Of a DNA stretch of 15,570 nt, positions 1 to 15,570 are shown one piece after another. The notes beneath the pieces were generated by a model. That model worked only from the letters and a program-made list of their open reading frames with translations. It made no database searches and was not told where the DNA came from. This DNA comes from a virus. The DNA lies in IMG/VR virus record IMGVR_UViG_3300045918_000243. One strand, given 5' to 3'. Both the position numbers and the translations under genes were made by a program. Positions within the stretch are counted from its first letter, which is position 1, and each line of letters begins with the position of its first letter.

Positions 1-127
1 CCTTTCGCGGCATTGGCGAAAGTCTCCCACTAATCTATGCCGTCTAATGTCCACCTCCGTGGGATGTTTATCCCGTGGCATTATGGAATCGCGGCACCCG
101 ACTAATTGAGCGGGCGGAATCTGTAGC
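1..127. repeat. Left copy of an exact 127-bp terminal direct repeat (identical to 15444..15570); circular-closure overlap
   Basis: Base-by-base reading: cctttcgcggcattggcgaaagtctcccactaatctatgccg...gcgggcggaatctgtagc occurs at both window ends. It carries the 3' end of the 54-aa ORF (1..33) and the portal start. Confidence 0.95.
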
Positions 128-1214
128 AGCGGAAACCCGCGCCATGAGCGGGGACTCCCTCATCGACGCGCTAGAGGGACTGTCCCGTAACGTGTGGTGG
201 TCCGTTTCGGACGACCTAGCCATGCGGGTCCCGGCGTTCCGCCGGGCCACGAACCTTATTTCGGGGACTGTCGCCCAATTGCCGCTAGTCCAGTGGCGCA
301 ACGGGGAACTAGTCGAAGATAACCCGCTACTCAGGCAGCCGGAAGCGGATAAAGCCGCATGGGTCACGATCCAACGACTGGTGCAGGATCTCGCCCTGTA
401 TGGCAAGGGCTATTGGATGGTCCGGGACGTGGACGCGGCGGGCTACCCCACAAAGGTTCGTGGCTTGGAAGCGGAAGAAGTCACCGAACCAGAGGACAAG
501 CCCCACACGGTCATTTGGAACGGCAAGGAATGGCCCGTATCCCACCCAGCGGGGCCGGGGACACAGGTGGGTCAGGTCATCGTGTTCACCGGGTTCGATA
601 ACGGCGTCCTAGTAGACGGTGCGCAGTCCATCGCCCTGGCGATTGCATTGGAAGAAGCAGCCAAGCGTTACGCAGACGTGCCGCTGCCGTCCATCGCCCT
701 AAAGAATACGGGCGCGGATCTCCCACCGGATCAGGTGGAGGCGCTGCTTGCCGCGTGGGAGGATGCCCGCGCCAACCGCGCCACCGCGTACCTGTCATCC
801 GTCGTGGACACGGAGACTTTCGGGTTCAGCCCCGCAGAATTGACCCTCACGGAAGCTCGCAATTTCGCATCGTTGGAAATCGCCCGTCTGTTTAACCTTG
901 ACGGCTTCTGGATCGGCGCGAACGTGTCCGGGTCCTCCCTCTCCTACTCCAATCGCGTGGATCTGCGTAAGGATCTCATCGACATAACGCTCATCGACTA
1001 CATGGCGCCGATTGAGCAACGGCTGTCTATGCGGGATGTGACCCCGACCCTCACGTCAAACGTGGTGCGGTTCTCAACCGTGGACTTCCTGCGATCCAAC
1101 CTCGCAGACCGGGTAGCCATCGTTGCCCAATTGCTGCCGTATCCCGGCGTGATGAGTGAAGCGGAAGCCCGCGATTTCCTGAGAGACACACCATCGAAGG
1201 GTGGACCCGCATGA
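75..1214 (+). CDS. Portal protein (HK97-type portal family pattern)
   Basis: 379-aa ORF between the large terminase and the prohead protease. The C-terminal region (SLSYSNRVDLRKDLIDITLIDYMAPIEQRL) resembles the conserved portal core. Its stop overlaps the next start (ATGA at 1211-1214). The start is uncertain: GTG 75 is the first start after the in-frame TAA at 45-47, ATG 147 is an alternative, and neither has a strong SD. Confidence 0.8.
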   Translation: MALWNRGTRLIERAESVAAETRAMSGDSLIDALEGLSRNVWWSVSDDLAMRVPAFRRATNLISGTVAQLPLVQWRNGELVEDNPLLRQPEADKAAWVTIQRLVQDLALYGKGYWMVRDVDAAGYPTKVRGLEAEEVTEPEDKPHTVIWNGKEWPVSHPAGPGTQVGQVIVFTGFDNGVLVDGAQSIALAIALEEAAKRYADVPLPSIALKNTGADLPPDQVEALLAAWEDARANRATAYLSSVVDTETFGFSPAELTLTEARNFASLEIARLFNLDGFWIGANVSGSSLSYSNRVDLRKDLIDITLIDYMAPIEQRLSMRDVTPTLTSNVVRFSTVDFLRSNLADRVAIVAQLLPYPGVMSEAEARDFLRDTPSKGGPA

Positions 1215-2725
1215 CCACAATGGATCTGGCCACTGTCCTGACGTTCCGTGAGACACCCGACAACCCCGACGTTGCCGCCACCTTTGAGGGGCTAGCCGTC
1301 CCGTATGGGGAAGCCGCAGACTTGGGGGGCATCCGGGAGGCGTTCGGTCCCGGCGCATTCGATCCTGCGGAAGTCATCGGGAAGCCTCTGTGCTGGCGGC
1401 ACGGTGAACCTATCGGGAAGATTACCCACGCGGAGAACACGGACAGCGGACTGACGGTGCGCGGCGATATCGCTAACACGACGCTCGGGCGTGACGCGGC
1501 AGTCATGGCCCGTATGGGTATCGGACTGTCCGTCGGTTTTGAGCCGCGTGAGTCCGTGTGGAATAAGACTAAGGATTTCGTCACCCACGTCCGTGCCGGA
1601 CTCGGGGAACTATCGCTCACCCATATGCCCGCCTACGCCAGTGCGGGTGTGACCACCACAAGAGAGGAAACGCCAATGTCCGATACGGACACCATGACCG
1701 CGCCGGACAAGGCAGCAGCGGTTGAGTACGCCACGCGGGACGATCTGCTTTCCATCCGGGAACGCATCGCCAGCATGGAAGCCCCGGCCCCCACCACGGA
1801 AGCGAACCCGCTTGCCGCATACCGTTCCCTCGGTGAGTACTCGCAGGCGGTCTACCGTGGCGAGATCTCGACCCGCGCCATCATCGACCAGATCACCGTC
1901 AACAACCCCGGCGTGTTGCAGCCCAACTGGGTGAACGAAGTCAAGGGAATCGTCTCCCACGGACGCCCCGGCATCACCGCCCTCGGTGTGGAGTCCGCCG
2001 GATCATCGGGCATGGACTTCAACTGGCCCTACTTCGACGGCGACCTTGCCGCGATTGTCGCAGTGCAGGCAGCGCAAAAGACCGACGTAAACAGTGTCCG
2101 CATCGACATCAAGAAGGGTACGGCGTCGCTGGCCACCTACGCGGCAGCGTCCGACATCTCCTACCAGTTGCTCATGCGTTCCGCGCCGTCCTACCTGGAC
2201 GCGCACAACCGGATCATGGCCGCGTCATACGCTGCCGTGACTGACAACGCCTTCGTTGACGCTCTCGTCGCGGGTGGTACGGCTTCCGCCGTTGACTACG
2301 ATCTGGCAGCGGACACCGACGGTCACCTGTTCCGGGCTGCTGTGTTCGCAGCATCGGTGGAGGTTGAGGCCGCCACGGGTAGCCCCGCTTCCGTCGTCCT
2401 GGTCGCCACGGACGTGTTCGCCAAGGCAGGCGGCTGGACCACTCTATTCCCGGCCCCATACGGCACGATGAACGCCAACGGAACCGCCACCGCGTCCACC
2501 CTCTCGGTGTCCGTGTCCGGGCTTCCCGTCGTGCATGACCGAAACCTCGCAGCGGGTTCCATCATCGTGACGAACACTCTGGCCGCGTCGTGGATTGAGG
2601 ACGGCCCGATGTTCGCGGACGCGGAGGTTCCGACCCGGCTCGGGCGTGACGTCGCCCTGTTCGGGTTCGGTGTGACCGCGATTTACCTGCCCAAGGGCGT
2701 CGTCAAGGTGACGAACCTCCCTTAG
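1211..2725 (+). CDS. Prohead (capsid maturation) protease fused in frame to the major capsid protein
   Basis: 504-aa ORF. Residues about 20-145 carry the HK97 prohead protease (peptidase S78-like) pattern: FEGLAVPYGE..FGPGAF..GKPLCWRHGEPIG..LTVRGDI..TTLGRD..GLSVGF..GELSLTHMPAY. A short helical linker follows (DDLLSIRERIASME). The remaining roughly 300 aa have the size and position of an HK97-fold capsid protein. No stop codon separates the two parts. Confidence 0.8.
   Translation: MTTMDLATVLTFRETPDNPDVAATFEGLAVPYGEAADLGGIREAFGPGAFDPAEVIGKPLCWRHGEPIGKITHAENTDSGLTVRGDIANTTLGRDAAVMARMGIGLSVGFEPRESVWNKTKDFVTHVRAGLGELSLTHMPAYASAGVTTTREETPMSDTDTMTAPDKAAAVEYATRDDLLSIRERIASMEAPAPTTEANPLAAYRSLGEYSQAVYRGEISTRAIIDQITVNNPGVLQPNWVNEVKGIVSHGRPGITALGVESAGSSGMDFNWPYFDGDLAAIVAVQAAQKTDVNSVRIDIKKGTASLATYAAASDISYQLLMRSAPSYLDAHNRIMAASYAAVTDNAFVDALVAGGTASAVDYDLAADTDGHLFRAAVFAASVEVEAATGSPASVVLVATDVFAKAGGWTTLFPAPYGTMNANGTATASTLSVSVSGLPVVHDRNLAAGSIIVTNTLAASWIEDGPMFADAEVPTRLGRDVALFGFGVTAIYLPKGVVKVTNLP
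1676..2725 (+). CDS. Candidate nested in-frame product: capsid protein alone, from an internal start
   Basis: An in-frame ATG at 1676 (Met156) lies exactly at the protease/capsid boundary. It is preceded by agagaggaaa (1661-1670), an SD-like purine block 5 nt upstream. Confidence 0.35.
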   Translation: MSDTDTMTAPDKAAAVEYATRDDLLSIRERIASMEAPAPTTEANPLAAYRSLGEYSQAVYRGEISTRAIIDQITVNNPGVLQPNWVNEVKGIVSHGRPGITALGVESAGSSGMDFNWPYFDGDLAAIVAVQAAQKTDVNSVRIDIKKGTASLATYAAASDISYQLLMRSAPSYLDAHNRIMAASYAAVTDNAFVDALVAGGTASAVDYDLAADTDGHLFRAAVFAASVEVEAATGSPASVVLVATDVFAKAGGWTTLFPAPYGTMNANGTATASTLSVSVSGLPVVHDRNLAAGSIIVTNTLAASWIEDGPMFADAEVPTRLGRDVALFGFGVTAIYLPKGVVKVTNLP

Positions 2726-2814
2726 TGCAGCAGCTGGCCACTCGCACCGTGGCCCCGCCCGTTGAGCTCCCGGTGACCACGGCTAGACGGCGTAAGACTG
2801 CAAAACCCTAAGAC

Positions 2815-2860
2815 GTGCTGGGGGCGGGGGTAGCCCCCTCCGGGTTCCCGCCCCCAGCAC
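2815..2860 (+). terminator. Perfect 14-bp inverted repeat (stem-loop) downstream of the capsid gene; no U-tract
   Basis: gtgctgggggcggg (2815-2828) pairs perfectly with cccgcccccagcac (2847-2860) around an 18-nt loop. It lies 90 nt after the capsid stop and just before the SD of the next gene. Only tt follows the stem. Confidence 0.45.
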
Positions 2861-2880
2861 TTACACAGGAAGGACATACC

Positions 2881-3228
2881 GTGACCGTTCCCATTCCACC
2901 GGCCCCGCTGGTGACAGCGGACGAATTGGCGGCTGTCCTCGGTATGCCCGTCCCCTCCACGAACACGGACGTCGCCGCGTCAGCTGACGCCGCGAACGGA
3001 TGGCTGGCACACTTCCTGACCCCACTCCCAGACCACTCAACCCATGAATGGTGCAAGCGGGCCGCCTTGGAAGTGTCCGTGTCCATGTATCAAAGCCCAC
3101 GTTCCGCTGGTGGGCAGCCCGTCAACATTGACTTTCAACCCGCCCCGTACGCCATGGGCGCGTCCATGATCCGCCGCGTGTCCGGGCTGGTAGGCCCATG
3201 CCGTGACGTCAACGGAATGGTCGGCTAA
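2881..3228 (+). CDS. Head-tail adaptor/connector (gp6-like pattern)
   Basis: GTG 2881 is preceded by AGGAAGGA (2867-2874) with 6-nt spacing. The N-terminal LVTADELAAVLGMPV and the later KRAALEVSVSMYQS fit the head-tail connector pattern. It is the first gene after the capsid gene. The track start at 2815 would place the hairpin inside the CDS. Confidence 0.6.
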   Translation: MTVPIPPAPLVTADELAAVLGMPVPSTNTDVAASADAANGWLAHFLTPLPDHSTHEWCKRAALEVSVSMYQSPRSAGGQPVNIDFQPAPYAMGASMIRRVSGLVGPCRDVNGMVG

Positions 3229-3656
3229 TGGCACTGACCACGGACGCACGGCATGAGATCACTACAGCATTCCAAGCCGCTGGTCTACCCGCCTACGCCT
3301 ACCTTCCGTCCACAGTGTCCGTTCCCGCCGTGGTCATCACCCCGGCAGACCCCTACGTTGAGCATGACCGCATCGGCGCGACCCTCACCTACACGGCAAT
3401 GTTCCGCGTGTCCATCATCACTGCCGCCCTAGACAATGAGTCCGGGCTTGCGGCGTGCGAGGACTTGATTGACGCCGTGATGACGGCCCTCCCGGACGGG
3501 GTGCGGCCCACCCGTGTCGGCCCGCCACTGACAGACGACCTAGGCGCACAGGGCGCGGCCTACGTCGCGGAAATGATTATCGCCGCTCATGTGACCGGCC
3601 CCGCCCCCGTCCCACGGAAAGCCCCCACCACTAACAGAAAGGTCCGCACGCCATGA
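3228..3656 (+). CDS. Neck protein (tail terminator / head-tail joining type; function tentative)
   Basis: 142 aa, with a TAATG overlap to the adaptor and an ATGA overlap to the major tail gene. Its position is directly upstream of the major tail protein. The N-terminal pattern (..AGLPAYAYLP....VPAVVITPADP..) resembles tail-completion/terminator families. Confidence 0.5.
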   Translation: MALTTDARHEITTAFQAAGLPAYAYLPSTVSVPAVVITPADPYVEHDRIGATLTYTAMFRVSIITAALDNESGLAACEDLIDAVMTALPDGVRPTRVGPPLTDDLGAQGAAYVAEMIIAAHVTGPAPVPRKAPTTNRKVRTP

Positions 3657-4503: not shown

Positions 4504-4915
4504 GGGGCTTAATGCCGTCCTGCGGGCGCTCAACGCCTTCCCGAAGGAAGCCAACGTCGAACTAAAGCAGGAATCATCCATCATCGCCAAGACGCTGATG
4601 GTCCCGTCCTATCAGCAGGCGGCTAGGTCCGTCCCCCACTGGGGGGAAATCCTCGCCGGGACAGTCAGGGCGAAACTTGACCGCATCCCGGCAGTGAACA
4701 TCGGCTACGCGGGAGCTAGGTATCGACTGTCCGGTGGGGCAACCCCGAACATGCTGCGTTACCCGTCCGCGTCCGGTAACCGTCGCGGATCATTCGCCCC
4801 CTTCACCCACACAAATTGGCTGGCACGGGCTGAGGGATACAAGCCCGCAGCAATGCAGGCGTGGGGGGATGCGCTGGAACGTGTCGTTCGCAAATGGAAT
4901 AGGGGTCCGGGCTGA
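4475..4915 (+). CDS. HK97 gp10-like head-tail joining / tail-completion protein
   Basis: ATG 4475 is preceded by GGGAGG (4463-4468) with 6-nt spacing. The N-terminus IVEIKGLNAVLRALNAFPKEANVELKQESSIIAKTL fits the gp10-like family pattern (x-V-E-I-K-G-L-..-L..L...PK). Its stop overlaps the tape-measure start (TGATG). Confidence 0.55.
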   Translation: MPSQKIVEIKGLNAVLRALNAFPKEANVELKQESSIIAKTLMVPSYQQAARSVPHWGEILAGTVRAKLDRIPAVNIGYAGARYRLSGGATPNMLRYPSASGNRRGSFAPFTHTNWLARAEGYKPAAMQAWGDALERVVRKWNRGPG

Positions 4916-6993
4916 TGGCTACCGGTGGCCGCACACTCACCGTCTACCTAGCGGCGGACACGTCGAAGGCGACGAAGGAGCTTAAAGGGTTCGGCGGTAC
5001 GATGGCGTCCACGTTCGGCCCCGCCCTGGCGCTAGCAGGCGCGGCAGCGGGCGCGTTCGCCGTGAAAATCGGTGTGGATGCTGTGCAGGCAGCGTCCAAC
5101 CTCAACGAAACAATGAACAAAACCAATGTGGTGTTCGGTGACTCTGCTGACGCGCTGGGCAAGTGGGCGAAGGACGCCGATACTGCCATGGGGCTGTCAC
5201 AGCAGGCAGCCCTTGACGCGGCTTCCGGGTTCGGTGTCATGGGGCAGGCAGCCGGTCTAACCGGTAGCGACGTCGCCAACTTCGCGCAGGGGTTGACCGG
5301 GCTTGCCGCTGATATGGCGTCTTTCTCCAATACGTCCGTGCAGGATGCTATCAACGCCATTGGGTCCGGTCTACGCGGTGAAGCCGAACCCCTCCGCGCC
5401 TACGGGGTACTCCTGGACGATGCCACTTTGAAGGCCAAGGCCATGGAAATGGGGATCTATAACGGCATTGGGGCGCTCAGCCAGCAGCAGCGGGTACTCG
5501 CAGCACAAGCAGCGATCATGGCGCAGACCGCGCAGCAGCAGGGAGACTTTCAGCGCACATCGGAAGGACTGGCGAACCAGACCCGTATCCTGTCCGCCCA
5601 ATTCGACAACCTGAAAGTAGCGTTAGGTCAAGCGCTGCTACGCGGCATGGGTGGCACCACGGACGCCACGAAGTCGATATCCCAGTCGATGAAGGATGCC
5701 ACCCCGATTGTGGAATTCTTCGGGGCGGCTATCGGTGGGCTGATTGAACCGCTGCTGAAAATCGCGGGCGCGGCAGGGAAGGCCACCGGCCCTATCGCCC
5801 GTCTAGCGGAAGCCGCGTCTGGCGGTTCGGTTGGCGCGTCCGATCTGGCCTACGGGTTGAATCCGCTGTATTGGGCGTTGAAATTCGCGGGGTCCGCCGC
5901 AGATATGGCCGCTAGGGGTATCAACGCCACGACTGCTGCTGGTGCTGCTGCCGCTAATCAGGCCGCTGTCGTCACCGCCCGTTACAACGGTCTGGCTAGT
6001 GCAGCGTTCCAAGCCGCTTTCGCCACGAATCAATTGGCGGCAGCAGAGTCGCGGTCCCGTGCTATCTCTGCGGAAGGTTCCCGCTACACGGCGATGGCCG
6101 TGCAGCAATTTGGGAAGTCGATTTCGTACACCGGTGGCACGTTGCAGACGTACCTCTCCCAATTGCACTCCGTCGCATCGGCCACCGGCGGTGGCGGTGG
6201 CGGTGGCGGCGGCGGTGGCGGTGGTGTTACGGGCGCTACGAAGGCGGCTACTGCCGCTATGGACGCGATGACCGCTGCCACCCAAAAGCACATTGACAAA
6301 CTAGATATTGCCGTAGGCAGGTTGAAAGATGCTAAGGCGGCGTGGCAGGACTACGCCGATTCCATCAGTAAGGGGATCTCCGGTGGTCAGGATCTCGCCG
6401 CGTGGATGAAGGAATGGGAGGACGCCGGGAGGAATGGCACCCTCACTGATTTCATTAACGCCAAGATTGGCGGGCAACTAGATTTCTCTGCGCTGCTGGG
6501 AACGATCCCGAACATTCCCAACACGCCCGGTGGTCAGGCGCTCATAAGCCAGATAGCGGCCATGGGGCCGATAGCGGGAACCGATTTCATTAACCAATTC
6601 GGGATCACCGCCCTCGCTGGTCTGGCAACCACCATGGATACGTCCAATGCGGCGTTCCAAGTGGTGGCCGCACAGTGGGCCACCGTGTTCTACGGCGAAG
6701 GTGTCAACGCTGCCACAGCGATGGTGGACGGCATGACCGCGAAGGTCATTGAAGATGAGAAGAAACTCCGCGCCCTCGGTAAGGCCATCGGTGAACCCAT
6801 CGGGGAAGCAATCAAAACGGCGATTGTCAACGCCCTCAACGCTGCCATGGCGGAAGTAGGCGCAAAGTCATCAGCAGCCAGTAACCGGTCAAGCCAGCAG
6901 TCCGTATCCGCTCTCGGGGTTAACCCGCTGGACGCGGCCCGAACTATTGAGGCTGCTATCAGCGCGAAGCAAGCCCGCCTAGGGGTCAAGTAA
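4915..6993 (+). CDS. Tape measure protein
   Basis: This is the largest ORF (692 aa). It is Ala/Gly/Gln-rich and predicted helical, has hydrophobic glycine-zipper-like stretches (GPALALAGAAAGAFAV), and lies downstream of the chaperone region. Confidence 0.85.
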   Translation: MATGGRTLTVYLAADTSKATKELKGFGGTMASTFGPALALAGAAAGAFAVKIGVDAVQAASNLNETMNKTNVVFGDSADALGKWAKDADTAMGLSQQAALDAASGFGVMGQAAGLTGSDVANFAQGLTGLAADMASFSNTSVQDAINAIGSGLRGEAEPLRAYGVLLDDATLKAKAMEMGIYNGIGALSQQQRVLAAQAAIMAQTAQQQGDFQRTSEGLANQTRILSAQFDNLKVALGQALLRGMGGTTDATKSISQSMKDATPIVEFFGAAIGGLIEPLLKIAGAAGKATGPIARLAEAASGGSVGASDLAYGLNPLYWALKFAGSAADMAARGINATTAAGAAAANQAAVVTARYNGLASAAFQAAFATNQLAAAESRSRAISAEGSRYTAMAVQQFGKSISYTGGTLQTYLSQLHSVASATGGGGGGGGGGGGGVTGATKAATAAMDAMTAATQKHIDKLDIAVGRLKDAKAAWQDYADSISKGISGGQDLAAWMKEWEDAGRNGTLTDFINAKIGGQLDFSALLGTIPNIPNTPGGQALISQIAAMGPIAGTDFINQFGITALAGLATTMDTSNAAFQVVAAQWATVFYGEGVNAATAMVDGMTAKVIEDEKKLRALGKAIGEPIGEAIKTAIVNALNAAMAEVGAKSSAASNRSSQQSVSALGVNPLDAARTIEAAISAKQARLGVK
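6187..6225 (+). repeat. Imperfect (GGC/GGT)13 trinucleotide tract encoding Gly13 inside the tape measure
   Basis: ggcggtggcggtggcggtggcggcggcggtggcggtggt read directly; in the TMP frame it is 13 consecutive Gly codons. Confidence 0.95.
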
Positions 6994-8177
6994 TGGCCCC
7001 TGTCCATTTCGCTCACTCAGTCCTCATCGACGGTGGGGAAGTGGCGTCTATCGTGCTGGCAGGCGCGACGATCAACTACGGAGTGTCAAGGGTCGATGAG
7101 CAACCACAGCCCGCGAATGCTTTCCTTACACTGATCTCCGCTGACGCTGTACCTAACATCGGCACGTCATATCCGGGGTTCTCCTGGGGTGACCGCATTC
7201 CGTCCGGGTTCACCGTCGATTGGACGGACGTCTATGAGGGTGGGGTTCCGCGCATAGCACTGGGTACAGCTGTGCAGGTGAACACGGCGACGCCCACAGG
7301 TTTCGTGGAAGCATGGACGGACACATATGACGCCGGGTTCAATGACACACGTTTTACGGGTCATATCACGGCGATAGATGTGCAACCTGCTGCCGTCAAC
7401 GTTACAGCGGTTACGGCGTCTGAAAGCCTGACCCGGAATCTGATTGATCCCTCGGGCTGGCCGGCGGAGACAGAGTTCGCACGGGTGACGCGGATCATCT
7501 CAGCCGCCAGCACAACCGGGCAGATCAACGGGACCGGCCCCACGATGATTACCGCGAACACCGGGACAGACCCCGCCCAGTCCGCGTGGACGCTGCTGTC
7601 CGATCTGGCTATGGCCTGCGATTCGATTCTTTACACGGACCGGCTGGGTGTCCTGACCTATACCTGCCGTGACGCTGCACCGGGAACCACTACGGATCTC
7701 GCCACCGGCGCGACCCTATTAGACGGGTTGACCATGACCACGGATTTCGGGTCCGTGGTGAACACCGTCACCGTGGAATGGGGGCCAGATGATGCGAGGG
7801 CGAAAGTAACCGCTACAGACACGGAAAGCGTAGCCATCTATGGTGCGCGGGAGGTCAACTATTCGGTGCCGTTCCAGTCTGTGACGGACGCCACCGACAA
7901 AGCAAACCGGGTTCTAGACCACGCGAAGAATCCCGTCTGGCATATGCCCAGCGCCACCGTCGCCATGCGCCTAGCGGAATTGCATGGTCCGTTCCCGTCG
8001 TATTTGCAGGAAGTCCTCGGCATTGACCTGGACGACACAGTGAACCTCCCCCAACTCCTACCCGGTTACCCGATGGAGTCGTACACGTCGCGGGTACTCG
8101 GCTACCGGGAGACGTTGGATTTAACGAATTGGACAATTGCGTTCGCGCTCAACCCCGCAGGATGGACTAAGCCATGA
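6993..8177 (+). CDS. Minor tail protein (distal tail protein position)
   Basis: 394 aa, with a TAATG overlap to the tape-measure stop and an ATGA overlap to the next gene. Being the first gene after the TMP is the usual place for the distal tail protein. Confidence 0.6.
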   Translation: MAPVHFAHSVLIDGGEVASIVLAGATINYGVSRVDEQPQPANAFLTLISADAVPNIGTSYPGFSWGDRIPSGFTVDWTDVYEGGVPRIALGTAVQVNTATPTGFVEAWTDTYDAGFNDTRFTGHITAIDVQPAAVNVTAVTASESLTRNLIDPSGWPAETEFARVTRIISAASTTGQINGTGPTMITANTGTDPAQSAWTLLSDLAMACDSILYTDRLGVLTYTCRDAAPGTTTDLATGATLLDGLTMTTDFGSVVNTVTVEWGPDDARAKVTATDTESVAIYGAREVNYSVPFQSVTDATDKANRVLDHAKNPVWHMPSATVAMRLAELHGPFPSYLQEVLGIDLDDTVNLPQLLPGYPMESYTSRVLGYRETLDLTNWTIAFALNPAGWTKP

Positions 8178-9133
8178 GGAACGCCAACCATGTCACGGAC
8201 CATAACGAATTACGGGAGCTTGTATCCGCTGAGTTGGCACGGTTCGGCATGGGCAACACGCTGGGCGGCCCGTGGCAGCCCGGTGACCCGGACCACGTTG
8301 GACGGCACAACTCTATGGTGGACGCCCTGGCAGCCCTAGCCTCCACCGCTGGTCAGACGTACACGACGCCGCTGCCGCCCCACCGGGCGCTGGGCGCGTC
8401 GGGTCATCTCGGGGACCATGACGTGATGCGGGCCGCAGCGGTGCAGGCGGCAACGTGGGACGCGTTTAACGTTGCATCGGGTGGCAATGCGTTGGCGGAC
8501 TTCGCCGACAGTGAGGGTATTTGGGCGGTCCGCGTATTCACGGCGTCCAGCACGTTCACGGTAACTAAGTCTGTACGCCCGTTTGAGATCATCCTGCAAG
8601 CCGGTGGCGGTGCGGGCGCGGGCGGGTCGCAGCATGGCGGCGGTGGCGGCGGCCACTACACGGCTACCGACCTGATGCTTCCCATCGGCGGAACATCATT
8701 CACGGTGGGCCAAGGCGGGGCATCGAACCTTCCCGGTAACCCGACCCGTATCGAGGGCCACCGGGAGGCGTTAGGCGGGCAGGAAGGCCGCGTCGGCGGT
8801 GGCGCGGGCGGAACACCGAACGGCGGCAACGGCGGTGCAGGACCGACGTCACCCGGTGGGACACCGGGCGTGCCTAGCGCCGGGGTCATCCTTCCCGCAT
8901 GGACGGGTGCTTACGCCGGTCAAGGTCAGGCGGGCGGTGGTGGGGCTGGTCAATGGCTCGGGGCAGGCCCAACGAACGGCGTTAATGGTGGCGGCAACGG
9001 CGGCACGGACGGGCAGCCCGGTGGCGCGGCAGGCGCGGAAATGGGCGGTGGCGGTGGCGGCAACGGGTCCAGTAACGGCACGGGCGGCCACGGCGGGTCC
9101 GGTTCGATCTTCATCCGTTGGCGGAAGGGATAG
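8174..9133 (+). CDS. Glycine-rich minor tail protein (fibre / receptor-binding candidate)
   Basis: 319 aa. The N-terminal part has repeated His/Asp motifs (DHNELRE, GDPDHVGRHN, GHLGDHDVM). The C-terminal roughly 180 aa is dominated by GGxGG/GxGG blocks (GGGAGAGGSQHGGGGGGHY...GGGGGGNGSSNGTGGHGGSGSIFIRW). It is the last structural gene before the lysis genes. Confidence 0.6.
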   Translation: MRNANHVTDHNELRELVSAELARFGMGNTLGGPWQPGDPDHVGRHNSMVDALAALASTAGQTYTTPLPPHRALGASGHLGDHDVMRAAAVQAATWDAFNVASGGNALADFADSEGIWAVRVFTASSTFTVTKSVRPFEIILQAGGGAGAGGSQHGGGGGGHYTATDLMLPIGGTSFTVGQGGASNLPGNPTRIEGHREALGGQEGRVGGGAGGTPNGGNGGAGPTSPGGTPGVPSAGVILPAWTGAYAGQGQAGGGGAGQWLGAGPTNGVNGGGNGGTDGQPGGAAGAEMGGGGGGNGSSNGTGGHGGSGSIFIRWRKG

Positions 9134-9141
9134 GAATCATC

Positions 9142-9264
9142 ATGGAGATTGACCCGTACGACCCGGACTACGCCGACTATGACGACTCGGCAGAGGGAAC
9201 CGACAACGACGGCACACCTAACCCGTCCGTTGACGGTAGCGAACTCATCGAAGGCGGGGAGTGA
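9142..9264 (+). CDS. 40-aa highly acidic micro-protein (unknown function)
   Basis: ATG 9142 follows AGGAA (9132-9136). The product is MEIDPYDPDYADYDDSAEGTDNDGTPNPSVDGSELIEGGE, with 14 D/E and no K/R/H. Third codon positions are mostly G/C. Its TGA overlaps the endolysin ATG (TGATG at 9262-9266). It is below the ORF-track length cutoff. Confidence 0.5.
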   Translation: MEIDPYDPDYADYDDSAEGTDNDGTPNPSVDGSELIEGGE

Positions 9265-10130
9265 TGGCCTACCCGAAACCCACCAGGGGGCAAATCCGGG
9301 AAGCGTTCAAGGATCACCGTGTCAACTATGTGGATCATGCGAAGGTCAGTGGCGGGCGTTCCGTCTGGTCTAACGGTTTGCGGGCCGCGACGATCCATCA
9401 CACGGCGGGGACGAATAGCGCCGACTACCTGGCAACCGCGTGGTCGTACCCTGGCGCTAACGTCGTAGTGAACAACGGCAAATACAACGGCACATCCAAA
9501 GACGGGCGCATAGTCATCCTGTCCTACGGGGACTGCTGGCATTCCGGGGACGGCGGACCGTGGCCGTCGATAGCAGCCAAGAACTCCCTCCACCTTGTGT
9601 CGTGGGGTTGCGAGCTAGAATCCAAGGGAACATCCAAAGACATAACGAACCCGCAGATTGAGTCCGTGGGCCGGATGCTTGCCGCACTGGTGGATCTCGG
9701 TATGCCACGCGGCAACATCCACCGCCACGCCGACTGGACCGATGGCACGACCCCGGTGGGTGGCTACCCGCTTCCCACATTGGGCCGCAAGATAGACACG
9801 AACAAGTCCCTCGGGTTCACGACGGGCTTCTGGGTGGATGCCTGCAAGAAGTACCAGGGGCCACCATCGGGCGGCGGGTACTGGGATGGGGTTGTGCCGT
9901 CCTATGAGGGGTGTTGGAACGCTTGGATTGACCAGACGCTAGCCAACCCACAGGCATGGCGGTTGGCGTGCCGTCTAGCGGATATGGGCTTCTACTCGGG
10001 TACGCCGCAACCTAAGGGGACACAGCGCTACCCCGTCAAGGCGGTAGCGAGCTTGCAGGCGGCTAAGGGCTGGAATGTGCCGCAGCCCGGTCAGTACGGT
10101 CCGAACCTCCACACCTACCTTTGGGGCTAA
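9264..10130 (+). CDS. Endolysin: N-acetylmuramoyl-L-alanine amidase (Amidase_2/PGRP-type) with a C-terminal peptidoglycan-binding-like domain
   Basis: Motifs ATIHHTAG, WGCELES and NIHRHADW...GRKIDT match the zinc-amidase pattern. The C-terminus LADMGFYSGTP...YPVKAVASLQAAKGWNVPQPGQYGPNLHTYLW resembles a PG_binding_1 repeat. ATG 9264 is preferred over the GTG at 9261. Confidence 0.8.
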   Translation: MAYPKPTRGQIREAFKDHRVNYVDHAKVSGGRSVWSNGLRAATIHHTAGTNSADYLATAWSYPGANVVVNNGKYNGTSKDGRIVILSYGDCWHSGDGGPWPSIAAKNSLHLVSWGCELESKGTSKDITNPQIESVGRMLAALVDLGMPRGNIHRHADWTDGTTPVGGYPLPTLGRKIDTNKSLGFTTGFWVDACKKYQGPPSGGGYWDGVVPSYEGCWNAWIDQTLANPQAWRLACRLADMGFYSGTPQPKGTQRYPVKAVASLQAAKGWNVPQPGQYGPNLHTYLWG

Positions 10131-12614: not shown

Positions 12615-12746
12615 ATGACCCGTGTGACTAAGTGTCAGCGTCCTAGCCGTTGCCCCACATGCCTAGCTCCTATGCGCCGTGGTCAACCCATACGCAAGAG
12701 CAAGGGTCGTTGGCACCACGACGGATGCGAGGAACCGAATGGTTAG
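12615..12746 (+). CDS. 43-aa Cys/His-rich micro-protein
   Basis: ATG 12615 follows AAAGGAG (12599-12605). The product is MTRVTKCQRPSRCPTCLAPMRRGQPIRKSKGRWHHDGCEEPNG. The next ATG overlaps its stop by 8 nt (ATGGTTAG). Confidence 0.5.
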   Translation: MTRVTKCQRPSRCPTCLAPMRRGQPIRKSKGRWHHDGCEEPNG

Positions 12747-12963
12747 GCAATGGCTTGACCCTGGCACGCCTAGAGGTAGGGCTGTGCAAGCAAGGGAACG
12801 CTACACACAGCTACCGTTGTGTGAGTGTGGATGGCGTGGGCAGCCGTCAGCGTCGTATGCGGACGCTTGGGGGCAGGCGGCCCGCCATGCCCAGGGGTGC
12901 CACCCCGGTGATACCCATCAGTCTGCAGCCAAGGCGTGGAAGCGTGCGCGTGACTGTGGCTAA
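12739..12963 (+). CDS. 74-aa Cys-containing small protein (CxCGW motif)
   Basis: It encodes MVRQWLDPGTPRGRAVQARERYTQLPLCECGWRGQPSASYADAWGQAARHAQGCHPGDTHQSAAKAWKRARDCG. It is the internal start of track ORF 12679..12963 and ends in the tgtggctaa junction. The competing frame (track ORF 12650..) is Arg-rich and of low complexity here. Confidence 0.45.
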   Translation: MVRQWLDPGTPRGRAVQARERYTQLPLCECGWRGQPSASYADAWGQAARHAQGCHPGDTHQSAAKAWKRARDCG

Positions 12964-13213
12964 ATGGGGAGGACGGCGGCTACAGCGTATGACGCGGGTC
13001 GTGCAGGAAACGTATGGCTGGGATTGTTGGCTGTGTCTGTCACCCATAGAAGCAAGCCAGTACAGCATTGACCACGTTGTCCCTAGGTCTAAAGGTGGAG
13101 AGGTATGGGACGTGGATAATATGCGCCCCGCCCATATTAAATGTAATTCGTCACGCGGAAATAGAACACCTAAACAAATAAAACTAATCCCTAATCCATC
13201 CCGCCAATGGTGA
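12956..13213 (+). CDS. HNH endonuclease
   Basis: The HNH motif is clear: CWLCLSP...YSIDHVVPRSKGGEVWDVDNMRPAHIKCNSSRGN. GTG 12956 (within GTGGCTAA, overlapping the upstream TAA) is the preferred start; ATG 12989 is an alternative. The 187-aa track version (from 12650) is probably over-extended. Confidence 0.85.
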   Translation: MAKWGGRRLQRMTRVVQETYGWDCWLCLSPIEASQYSIDHVVPRSKGGEVWDVDNMRPAHIKCNSSRGNRTPKQIKLIPNPSRQW

Positions 13214-13582: not shown

Positions 13583-13911
13583 CGGACACGATGTTCAGCG
13601 CCCCACGTCGGAAGCAGGGGGCGGCGGAAGCGCTGCTGTCGAAGACTCTGCGGGCGTGGCATGAGTCTGGGCATCTGGCTGGGGACGCCTACGCCGTCCA
13701 CCGGGGCATCCTTCGGGACGCTGCACGGGCTGTGGATGCTGCTAGGGCCGCGTCTAGGAACGGTGAGTGTTCGGACCACACGTTTGCACGGGTGAACAAG
13801 ATGTTCCTTGAATCGGTGCAGGCTTTCGCCCCTGGAGAGGAGCCTAGCCATGACGATATTGACGCCCTTATCGCCAATATCAGCGGCGGCCCCACGATTC
13901 ACCACGGCTAG
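13579..13911 (+). CDS. Putative terminase small subunit
   Basis: 110 aa, predicted helical, immediately upstream of and overlapping the large terminase. The call is by position and size only. Confidence 0.45.
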   Translation: MTDTMFSAPRRKQGAAEALLSKTLRAWHESGHLAGDAYAVHRGILRDAARAVDAARAASRNGECSDHTFARVNKMFLESVQAFAPGEEPSHDDIDALIANISGGPTIHHG

Positions 13912-15274
13912 GAATTCCGCTAACCCCACCCATGGTCCCGGTGTGGCTGCTGTCGCGCTGGCGCTGGGTTGGCCGCTGCTGCCGTGGCAACGGCACGTTG
14001 CAGACGTAGCGTGCGAGATTGACCCGTCTACGGGGACGTGGCGCTACCCGACAGTGGTCATTTCCACGCCCCGACAGGCAGGGAAGTCCAGTCTTTTGGG
14101 GGCGATTCTGACGCATCGGGCGATGACACAGCGCGATTCCCTGCACTGGTACACAGCGCAGACGGGGCTGGCGGCCCGTGACACATGGCGTAAATGGGAG
14201 TACAAACTCACCGAAACGATGCCGGGGCGCTGGCGTATGCGCCGTGCAGCTGGGGAGGAACGCGCCACCTTCCTAGCCACGAATAGTTTCGTCCGGGCGT
14301 TCCCACCCACGCCTAAGAGTCTGCACGGGCAGCAGGCGGACACCGTGGTCATTGACGAATGCTTCTCTTTCACCCCGGATCAAGGCGATTCCATACTGCA
14401 AGCGGTGGTCCCGACGCAGGCGACACGCCGTCAGCGCCAAATGTTCATTATCAGCACCGCCGGAAATGATGAGTCCGTGTGGTTCCGGGCGTGGATTGAG
14501 AAAGGGCGGGCCGCGTGCCTAGACCCTCACTCCTCTATCGCGTTCTTTGAGTGGTCCGCGCCCGACGATGCCCCAATTGACGACCAAGAGACGTGGCGGA
14601 CATTCCATCCGGGTTACCCGATGCTGATAGATGACGCGGCTATGGCAGCAGCCATGGACCAATTCGGCCCGGAGGGGTTCGCTAGGGGCTACCTGAACCG
14701 CTGGCCCACAGCGGAACTCTCTTGGCGGGCGGGTTGGCCCGCCCTGGCATCCGTAGACGTCCTACCCGCTGACGCTCCCGTGTTCATCGCAGCGGACGCC
14801 GCCCCGAACCACCGCACAGCCGCCATCGTCGCCGCCGGGTCACTCCCCGATGGGCGGGTAGCCGTGGAAGTCCTGTCCACAGGTGACGGTGTGGAATGGG
14901 TGCTACCCCGCCTAGCGGATCTCCACCGCAAGCACCGGTGCCGGATCGTCATCCAACGCACCGGGCCACTCGGCTACATGATCGAGGAGCTAGAACGTGC
15001 CGGTGTGAGGGTGACAGCGGCGACGGAAGCGGACTACGGGGACGCGGTGGCACGGTTCCGCACCATGGCCGCTGCCGGGGAACTCGCCCACCAGTCCGAC
15101 CCGCGCCTGAATTCTGCCGTGGATGGGGCCGTGTCCCGGAAGCGTGGGGACCGGGAAGTGTGGTCACGGAAAGACGCCAACGTAGATCTGGCCCCACTGG
15201 TGGCGGCGACGTTCGCTGTGTGGCAGGCGGCTACCCCGCCACCCGTCCCCATGGTCATATCCCTACCCCGGTGA
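13850..15274 (+). CDS. Terminase large subunit
   Basis: Walker A-like STPRQAGKSS, Walker B-like ADTVVIDECF and the coupling motif IISTAG are present, followed by a C-terminal nuclease-size domain. ATG 13850 follows GGAGAGGAG (13835-43). Alternatives are the track start at 13808 and GTG 13943. Confidence 0.85.
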   Translation: MTILTPLSPISAAAPRFTTARNSANPTHGPGVAAVALALGWPLLPWQRHVADVACEIDPSTGTWRYPTVVISTPRQAGKSSLLGAILTHRAMTQRDSLHWYTAQTGLAARDTWRKWEYKLTETMPGRWRMRRAAGEERATFLATNSFVRAFPPTPKSLHGQQADTVVIDECFSFTPDQGDSILQAVVPTQATRRQRQMFIISTAGNDESVWFRAWIEKGRAACLDPHSSIAFFEWSAPDDAPIDDQETWRTFHPGYPMLIDDAAMAAAMDQFGPEGFARGYLNRWPTAELSWRAGWPALASVDVLPADAPVFIAADAAPNHRTAAIVAAGSLPDGRVAVEVLSTGDGVEWVLPRLADLHRKHRCRIVIQRTGPLGYMIEELERAGVRVTAATEADYGDAVARFRTMAAAGELAHQSDPRLNSAVDGAVSRKRGDREVWSRKDANVDLAPLVAATFAVWQAATPPPVPMVISLPR

Positions 15275-15311: not shown

Positions 15312-15476
15312 ATGACTATCAAACGTTTCGCGCTGGCTTTCCTACTGTCCGCCATCATCCTGAGTATCGGGTTCGCGGCGGTAGTCTTCACTAATACGCC
15401 CGGAATGCTCGGGCTTATCCCCGTTTTCGGGTTAGCGGTTCTCCCTTTCGCGGCATTGGCGAAAGTCTCCCACTAA
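15312..15476 (+). CDS. 54-aa two-helix membrane micro-protein between the terminase and the portal
   Basis: ATG 15312 follows GGAGGGG (15298-15304). The product is MTIKRFALAFLLSAIILSIGFAAVVFTNTPGMLGLIPVFGLAVLPFAALAKVSH. Its 3' end lies in the terminal repeat and is also present at 1..33. Confidence 0.5.
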   Translation: MTIKRFALAFLLSAIILSIGFAAVVFTNTPGMLGLIPVFGLAVLPFAALAKVSH

Positions 15477-15570
15477 TCTATGCCGTCTAATGTCCACCTC
15501 CGTGGGATGTTTATCCCGTGGCATTATGGAATCGCGGCACCCGACTAATTGAGCGGGCGGAATCTGTAGC
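15444..15570. repeat. Right copy of the exact 127-bp terminal direct repeat
   Basis: Identical to 1..127. Unit genome length is therefore 15,443 bp. Confidence 0.95.

Follow-up and report, generated by a model that had tools for sequence, protein, structure and literature searches.

The stretch of DNA analysed here (IMG/VR virus record IMGVR_UViG_3300045918_000243; 15,570 nucleotides (nt), hereafter the window) carries, directly after its portal gene (75-1214, +; Pfam Phage_portal, E 9.5e-31; TGA stop at 1212-1214), an open reading frame (ORF; 1211-2725, +; 504 amino acids (aa), 52.7 kDa) that runs uninterrupted for 504 codons and in which a prohead protease is fused to a capsid protein. An earlier note on this DNA had recognised an S78-type protease running into a capsid-sized C-terminal part within this ORF, and Pfam, PHROG 2263, an AlphaFold2 (AF2) model and Foldseek agree on such an organization. 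The family Peptidase_S78 (PF04586) matches residues 21-152 with an E-value of 4.8e-12 (46.7 bits versus a curated cut-off of 21), thus delimiting a protease domain of the HK97 gp4 type (1271-1666, +), and Phage_capsid_4 matches residues 249-500 at E 4e-4 with 21.2 bits, which is under its curated cut-off of 27. PF25209 appears in the precomputed Pfam annotation of most of the relatives listed, and PHROG 2263 spans residues 26-501 (E 5e-50). The AF2 model of the full-length protein, computed from 45 relatives and of medium confidence (mean predicted local distance difference test score 70.6), consists of a beta-rich protease domain (residues 8-137), a disordered stretch (144-174), three helices (176-189, 200-203 and 207-215) and an HK97 fold (239-501) built around a 30-residue spine helix (326-355). 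The top Foldseek match of this model is HK97 Prohead I (3qpr_A; E 4.8e-8, probability 1.0, template modelling score on the target 0.59), followed by HK97 Prohead II, other phage capsids, encapsulins and T4 gp24 chains, also at probability 1.0. The HK97 fold, whose presence in the C-terminal part the earlier note had proposed as a check on its own reading, is therefore there in the model and in its structural matches. In the protease domain His64 and Ser107, the latter within a G-x-S-x-G-F motif, are invariant in the 45-sequence alignment and are candidates for the catalytic His and Ser of HK97 gp4-type proteases. The fusion protein has 756 relatives in a large protein collection; the 120 listed, from which the 45 aligned sequences come, are all about 500-516 aa long, and the contigs encoding many of them measure 14-17 kb.

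Between the protease and the capsid domain (residues 223-504; 1877-2722, +; 282 aa and 29.0 kDa if cut at 222/223) lies a linker of 66 aa (residues 157-222; 1679-1876, +) that is acidic, with an isoelectric point of 4.5 and a mass of 7.2 kDa. The helical mini-scaffold resembling the HK97 delta domain that had been suggested for this region holds as far as its short length and its partly helical character in the AF2 model are concerned; the scaffold role itself stays a putative one, by analogy with the HK97 delta domain and with the 'putative central scaffolding domain' of Nocturne116 ORF18. Just ahead of the linker, within the disordered stretch of the model, codon 156 of the ORF is an in-frame ATG (Met156; 1676-1678, +) preceded by the purine tract agagaggaaa (1661-1670, +), at the coordinates reported before. 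This Shine-Dalgarno (SD)-like tract overlaps the codons of Arg151, Glu152 and Glu153, and its GAGG core (1664-1667) is separated from the ATG by 8 nt. The predicted energy of its duplex with the anti-SD sequence, -10.4 kcal/mol, is reached by 1.1% of the window positions and bettered by only 3 of the 16 gene starts scored in the window, and among the 31 in-frame ATG, GTG and TTG codons of the ORF the ATG at 1676 has the best value. Initiation at this codon would yield a co-terminal product of 349 aa and 36.3 kDa (1676-2725, +) made up of the scaffold-like segment and the capsid protein, which we propose on the strength of the conservation of its start signal.

The internal start signal is conserved at the nucleotide level far beyond chance. 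Our close set comprised 80 IMG/VR loci with 53-98% protein identity, whose codons were mapped onto the alignment and which reduce to 70 non-redundant genes. In 80/80 of these loci the Met156 position is an in-frame ATG that follows a GGAG or GAGG, so that conservation of the signal in related genomes, the other check named in the earlier note, is found throughout the close set and, as detailed below, in most of the distant fusion lineages. The sequence before the ATG is GAAGGAG with a 5-nt spacer in most loci and GAGAGGAA in the clade of the window, where the spacer is 8 nt. At the protein level (45 relatives, 55-85% identity) Met156 is nearly invariant within a variable and indel-rich linker. 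When the 70 genes are anchored at the ATG, the residues encoded at -1 to -8 differ, being E, G, A, D, T, P or others, but G is found at -9 in all of them and at -12 in 66, and pyrimidines are almost absent from -15 to -4, in spite of there being 35 distinct 24-mers. The number of Glu codons before the ATG ranges from two to at least six and the distance from GGAG to the ATG is constant. Arg151 is encoded by AGA or CGA in 69/70 genes, two codons found in no more than 19% of genes at each of 11 further conserved Arg columns; in the window AGA is the rarest Arg codon (6/244). Since the residues vary, the GGAG-to-ATG spacing is kept and the Arg151 codon is skewed, selection acts on the bases and not on the residues. 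Energetically, the internal ATG is the best of all in-frame ATG, GTG and TTG codons in 62 of the 70 genes, with a mean of -9.5 kcal/mol versus -0.6 kcal/mol at the equally invariant Met336, and the mRNA around it is less structured than elsewhere in the gene (-8.9 kcal/mol in a 60-nt window versus a gene average of -15.0 kcal/mol).

The long product has a start signal as well. In the window its start is preceded by the SD-like tract gaagggtgga (1196-1205, +; duplex energy -11.1 kcal/mol), and its ATG overlaps the TGA stop codon of the portal gene as ATGA (1211-1214). An overlap of the type xTGA, either ATGA or GTGA, is present in 64 of 69 relatives and suggests that translation of the long form is coupled to the portal gene and that this coupling is conserved. 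Of the 69 genes, 47 start with ATG and 22 with GTG. Across the relatives the SD of the 5' start (mean -8.05 kcal/mol) is weaker than the internal one in 57/69 genes, a pattern that fits, without being proof of it, a low and portal-coupled long form accompanied by a stronger and independent short form. The long product should be translated too, because the protease domain is under purifying selection, with His64, Ser107 and other residues invariant. The entry for the fusion gene in a public protein collection is 501 aa long and begins at the second ATG (1220; SD energy -3.0 kcal/mol), whose SD is poorer than that of the ATG at 1211; the latter in addition overlaps the portal gene as ATGA.

The same type of signal recurs in fusion genes that have little or no linker sequence in common with the window. 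A linker SD and ATG, weak in some cases, were identified in 15 of 16 actinophage lineages, with the phage linker ATG situated 5-70 codons (mostly 10-25) past the end of the protease domain. It lies at residue 166 in TinyTruffula and 163 in Concrete (SD energy -9.6 kcal/mol in both), at residues 160, 178 and 162 in Penoan, Root and Hadban (-9.8 each), at 160 in Inspire2 of cluster AN (-9.2), 165 in Atraxa (-7.5) and 173 in Barebow (-6.5), and further downstream in Whytu (196; -4.0), BlueFeather (204; -5.8), Schiebs (226; -8.7), RRH1 (274; -9.3), McGonagall (276; -6.6) and Rahul (307; -8.0). Two subtypes of cluster EE carry the linker signal, and ScienceWizSam, a phage of 58 kb, has its best internal signal (-11.7 kcal/mol) at residue 241, deeper in the scaffold region. 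Actinobacterial genome loci with 25-39% identity, some of them prophage-like on megabase contigs, have the signal in 13/13 cases; their hosts include Brevibacterium, Brachybacterium, Demequina, Actinomyces, Luteipulveratus and Luteimicrobium, among others, and one of the 13 has GTG in place of ATG, together with the strongest SD of all. A fourteenth locus from this genome scan, L098, belongs with its 56% identity to the family of the window itself, and it likewise carries the signal. Such signals are rare within the distant genes: these 30 genes, with 17,203 codons, contain only 32 in-frame ATGs with an SD energy of -8.5 kcal/mol or lower. The linker ATG accounts for 20 of these, and the remainder, with two exceptions, are at or beside the 5' start.

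Some of the distant loci deserve comment on their own. In three of them, L104 from Brevibacterium otitidis and L105 and L107 from Brachybacterium, the full-length and the internal product are much alike in their initiation regions and first residues: the sequences at the two starts of L104 are aggacatcagcaATG (5' start; peptide MPDTLTRD) and aggacatccgcaATG (internal start; peptide MPETLTRD). Duplication of the initiation region could account for this likeness, as could an N-terminal strand motif common to both products or selection acting on the early codons. The fusion ORFs of Gordonia and Rhodococcus phages (EricDab, L091, 1009-2895; RRH1, L087, 4439-6424; L088 and L089) are extended by about 100-130 N-terminal residues, which in RRH1 and EricDab are hydrophobic and membrane-like in appearance, and EricDab has a strong SD and ATG at residue 117, ahead of the protease part; it may be worth re-examining where the annotation places the 5' ends of these genes. 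Relatives also occur in bins labelled as Proteobacteria, namely L098 (a metagenome-assembled genome (MAG) labelled Alphaproteobacteria, 14.6-kb contig) and L099 (a MAG labelled Porticoccaceae), which probably hold mis-binned phage contigs; the more distant chromosomal relatives are nearly all from Actinomycetota, the exceptions being two short protease-only matches. A Firmicute outgroup was considered and set aside, the listed Bacillus and Geobacillus matches being stand-alone proteases and not fusions. An exhaustive search with the 349-aa product as query for natural split capsid genes starting at the Met156 equivalent retrieved many proteins of about 340-390 aa (beginning M-S/T-E/D-T) on contigs of 1.1-5 kb. 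Because these contigs are very short and 3 of the 6 clusters checked also contain members of 508-534 aa, the proteins most likely stem from gene calls cut short where the contigs end, and they were not counted as evidence.

Taking the comparative sequence evidence as a whole, we think it likely that the fusion gene is a nested two-start gene encoding a 504-aa protease-scaffold-capsid protein and a 349-aa scaffold-capsid protein, and we infer from the same evidence that the internal start is used and that the short product would be the majority species. In the mechanism that we envisage, initiation at 1211 would produce the 504-aa polypeptide and initiation at the internal SD and ATG (1661-1678) the 349-aa polypeptide devoid of protease. 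Since both products contain the whole HK97-fold capsid part, they could build one procapsid together. HK97-fold proteins have their N-termini on the inner side of the procapsid, so the tethered S78 proteases would come to lie inside the shell. After assembly the protease would remove the N-terminal parts, probably behind Arg222, to leave a mature shell protein of about 282 aa. The pair Arg222-Ala223 (1874-1879, +) is a low-confidence candidate for this maturation site: in the 45-sequence alignment Arg222 is invariant and Ala223 nearly so, and an Arg-Ala pair of the cluster EE proteins aligns with it. The spine helix (326-355) lies about 100 residues past Arg222, as it does from the cleavage site in HK97. 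Cleavage between R242 and S243 in Nocturne116 provides a further parallel, although BLASTP aligns only the protease part of that protein and R242-S243 could not be mapped onto the fusion protein, so that the proposed site remains an analogy. As a rough estimate from genome length alone, the shell would have T=4 (triangulation number) symmetry and about 235 subunits. Extending the reading beyond the window, we lean slightly towards nested initiation being a general, unannotated rule of the protease-capsid fusions of Actinomycetota phages and prophages, in which the long form would be made at a low, portal-coupled level and the bulk of the shell would derive from the internal start.

The conserved elements could also be accommodated by a single 504-aa product, with every subunit cutting off the protease and scaffold that it carries. 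In that case the SD-like tract and Met156 would be preserved for the sake of the protein, for instance as the place where the protease domain ends or as a motif for cleavage or recognition, or they would be a relic of an ancestral separate capsid gene. A single product is what is annotated in all GenBank relatives and described in the papers on the fusions, the S78 domain ends in the conserved residues Arg151-Glu152, and P2 gpO, according to a paper citing the work on it, acts as one autoproteolytic protease-scaffold product. Nonetheless, the use of AGA or CGA for Arg151 in 69/70 genes denotes a constraint on bases, the G at -9 is kept while the residues change (E, A, D, V), the SD-to-ATG spacing survives the indels of Glu codons, Met336 is invariant without an SD, and a neutral relic would not persist across lineages at 25-39% protein identity; we thus regard a single product as improbable. 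On the other hand, the short product might arise from a transcript of its own starting inside the gene, as does UL26.5 of herpes simplex virus 1 (HSV-1), rather than from ribosomes initiating within the long mRNA. Such a transcript would likewise require an SD, and the nested protease/scaffold pair of herpesviruses has a separate promoter. However, no sigma-70-like promoter was detected in 1-3300, with a scan that models actinobacterial and phage promoters poorly, and the region upstream of the SD is protease-coding sequence conserved at the protein level, in which no conserved motif of non-coding appearance was seen. An internal transcript is possible and not exclusive of a nested two-start gene; as a substitute for internal initiation it seems to us very unlikely. 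The reading to which we give least credence takes the SD-like tract as a translational pause for folding of the protease, or as the stimulator of a frameshift ending the protease early. Internal SD-like sequences have indeed been proposed to pause ribosomes and they stimulate the dnaX and prfB frameshifts, but here an ATG at start-site spacing is the sole conserved element past the tract, the 35 distinct variants share no conserved slippery heptamer, and the replacement of ATG by GTG in one distant locus fits a start codon and not a pause.

The nested two-start interpretation has nonetheless to be weighed against several of our own observations. The 8-nt spacer in the clade of the window is among the longest of those usually seen, and the anti-SD used throughout was a generic actinobacterial 16S 3' tail, which may not be that of the host. 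The sequences compared are related and not independent, and the gene counts consequently overstate independence. In the window the 5' SD (-11.1 kcal/mol) is slightly stronger than the internal one (-10.4 kcal/mol), so the ratio of the products cannot be read from the SD there. Among the distant fusions the linker signal is weak in Whytu (-4.0 kcal/mol), Nocturne116 (-6.2 kcal/mol, residue 145) and Barebow (-6.5 kcal/mol), and in the Gordonia phage EricDab a linker start signal was looked for and none was found. Finally, a rough volume estimate indicates that a shell made entirely of the long form is sterically possible and a mixed shell is not forced; because of this, our argument rests on conservation and not on geometry.

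Protease-capsid fusions as such have been described before in small actinophages (Microbacterium cluster EE, Arthrobacter cluster AN and Rhodococcus RRH1), which gives substance to the precedent invoked in the earlier note. Jacobs-Sera et al. (2020) reported it as common in small-genome siphoviruses of clusters AN, AX, FE, CW and DM and in phage RRH1, and Klyczek et al. (2017; PMC5513430) described the same fusion in clusters AN, AM and AU. In the literature searched, not exhaustively, no internal start was found for these fusions, and the published annotations give a single product. Like the window, they encode an S78 protease, a short scaffold and an HK97-fold capsid protein right after the portal gene in siphovirus genomes of 14-18 kb, and most of them also have a linker SD and ATG; PHROG 2263, the family of these fusions, covers the window protein over practically its whole length. 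The cluster EE proteins are, however, only about 29% identical to the window protein, cluster AN and RRH1 give no tblastn match to it even at E <= 1, and, unlike the published fusions, that of the window belongs to a large uncultured metagenomic family. The window gene is a new and distant member of a known fusion family, and its proposed nested start is a variant of a known nested protease/scaffold strategy.

That strategy is found in lambda C/Nu3, HSV-1 UL26/UL26.5 and gp17/gp17.5 of the Haloferax virus HFTV1, the last of them demonstrated by ribosome profiling (Ribo-seq) and liquid chromatography-tandem mass spectrometry (LC-MS/MS). In the three systems an in-frame start past the protease gives an abundant truncated product which shares the C-terminus of the long one and carries the protease into the procapsid. 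There, however, what the two products have in common is a free scaffold, the capsid protein having a gene of its own, whereas in the window, as far as can be told from sequence, the shared part comprises scaffold and capsid protein, and some of the shell subunits would, if the gene is nested, carry the protease covalently. HK97 resembles the window in its S78 protease family and in the scaffold-like N-terminal segment fused to an HK97-fold capsid protein; its protease gene is separate and the enzyme is targeted without a covalent link, unlike in the window. The HK97 delta domain, of about 100 aa, is longer than the 66-aa segment of the window, and mature HK97 gp5 is 282 aa long, the same as the window part would be if cut at 222/223. 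ORF18 of Nocturne116 (PDB 9SZ9/9SZA) also combines protease, putative scaffold and capsid in one ORF, and its cryo-electron microscopy structure (PMC13595954) has established a three-part protein whose mature capsid form has residue 243, the one following Arg242, as its N-terminus. Of the PDB sequences, this chain alone matched our profile (E 1.4e-6); nevertheless, just the protease part aligns with the window, and the phage differs in having a Firmicute host and a prolate head with a separate vertex protein. P2 gpO, as portrayed in the citing paper, likewise joins protease and scaffold in one autoproteolytic polypeptide, without an internal start and without a capsid domain, and is the model for a single-product gene.

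The papers on the fusions do not address a question of stoichiometry, namely whether each of the few hundred subunits of the shell carries a protease, to which an internal start would be a simple answer. Were the nested reading true, one coding sequence would give two co-terminal products, a change of annotation for several hundred phage genomes. If nested initiation were moreover a general rule, these genomes would each be short of one product, the copy number of the protease would follow the low level of the portal, and the arrangement would represent a missing link between the nesting of the lambda type (C/Nu3) and the scaffold-capsid fusion of the HK97 type. The nested protease/scaffold scheme is common to tailed phages, herpesviruses and archaeal viruses, and it would appear here in a third form, with the shell protein as the carrier, possibly as a guide for the design of minimal self-maturing capsids. 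Culturable relatives with the same signal exist among the Microbacterium foliorum phages of cluster EE, such as TinyTruffula, and the Arthrobacter phages of cluster AN, such as Inspire2 of Arthrobacter sp. ATCC 21022.

As for the genome in which the fusion gene resides, bases 1-127 of the window are repeated exactly at 15444-15570, a 127-nt terminal direct repeat that makes the window a circularly closed assembly with a unit of 15,443 bp, a size among the smallest of tailed-phage genomes. Its G+C content is 62% and every recognisable gene is on the plus strand. No phage record was similar to the window at the nucleotide level, and related prophage-like loci point to Actinomycetota as the host group. 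The gene order is portal, fusion, several small ORFs without family match and tape measure (4915-6993, +), and no second head-protein match, be it to a separate protease, scaffold or capsid protein, was obtained among the window ORFs searched. Besides tail proteins (+), the window encodes an amidase endolysin (9261-10130, +), an HNH endonuclease (12650-13213, +) and the large terminase (13808-15274, +). The HNH endonuclease gene is situated about 600 nt upstream of the large terminase gene, a pairing known from cos-type packaging modules. A Gly_rich_2 protein of 319 aa is encoded at 8174-9133, and repeats rich in the glycine codons GGC and GGT occur at 9044-9086 within it and at 6181-6244 within the tape-measure gene.

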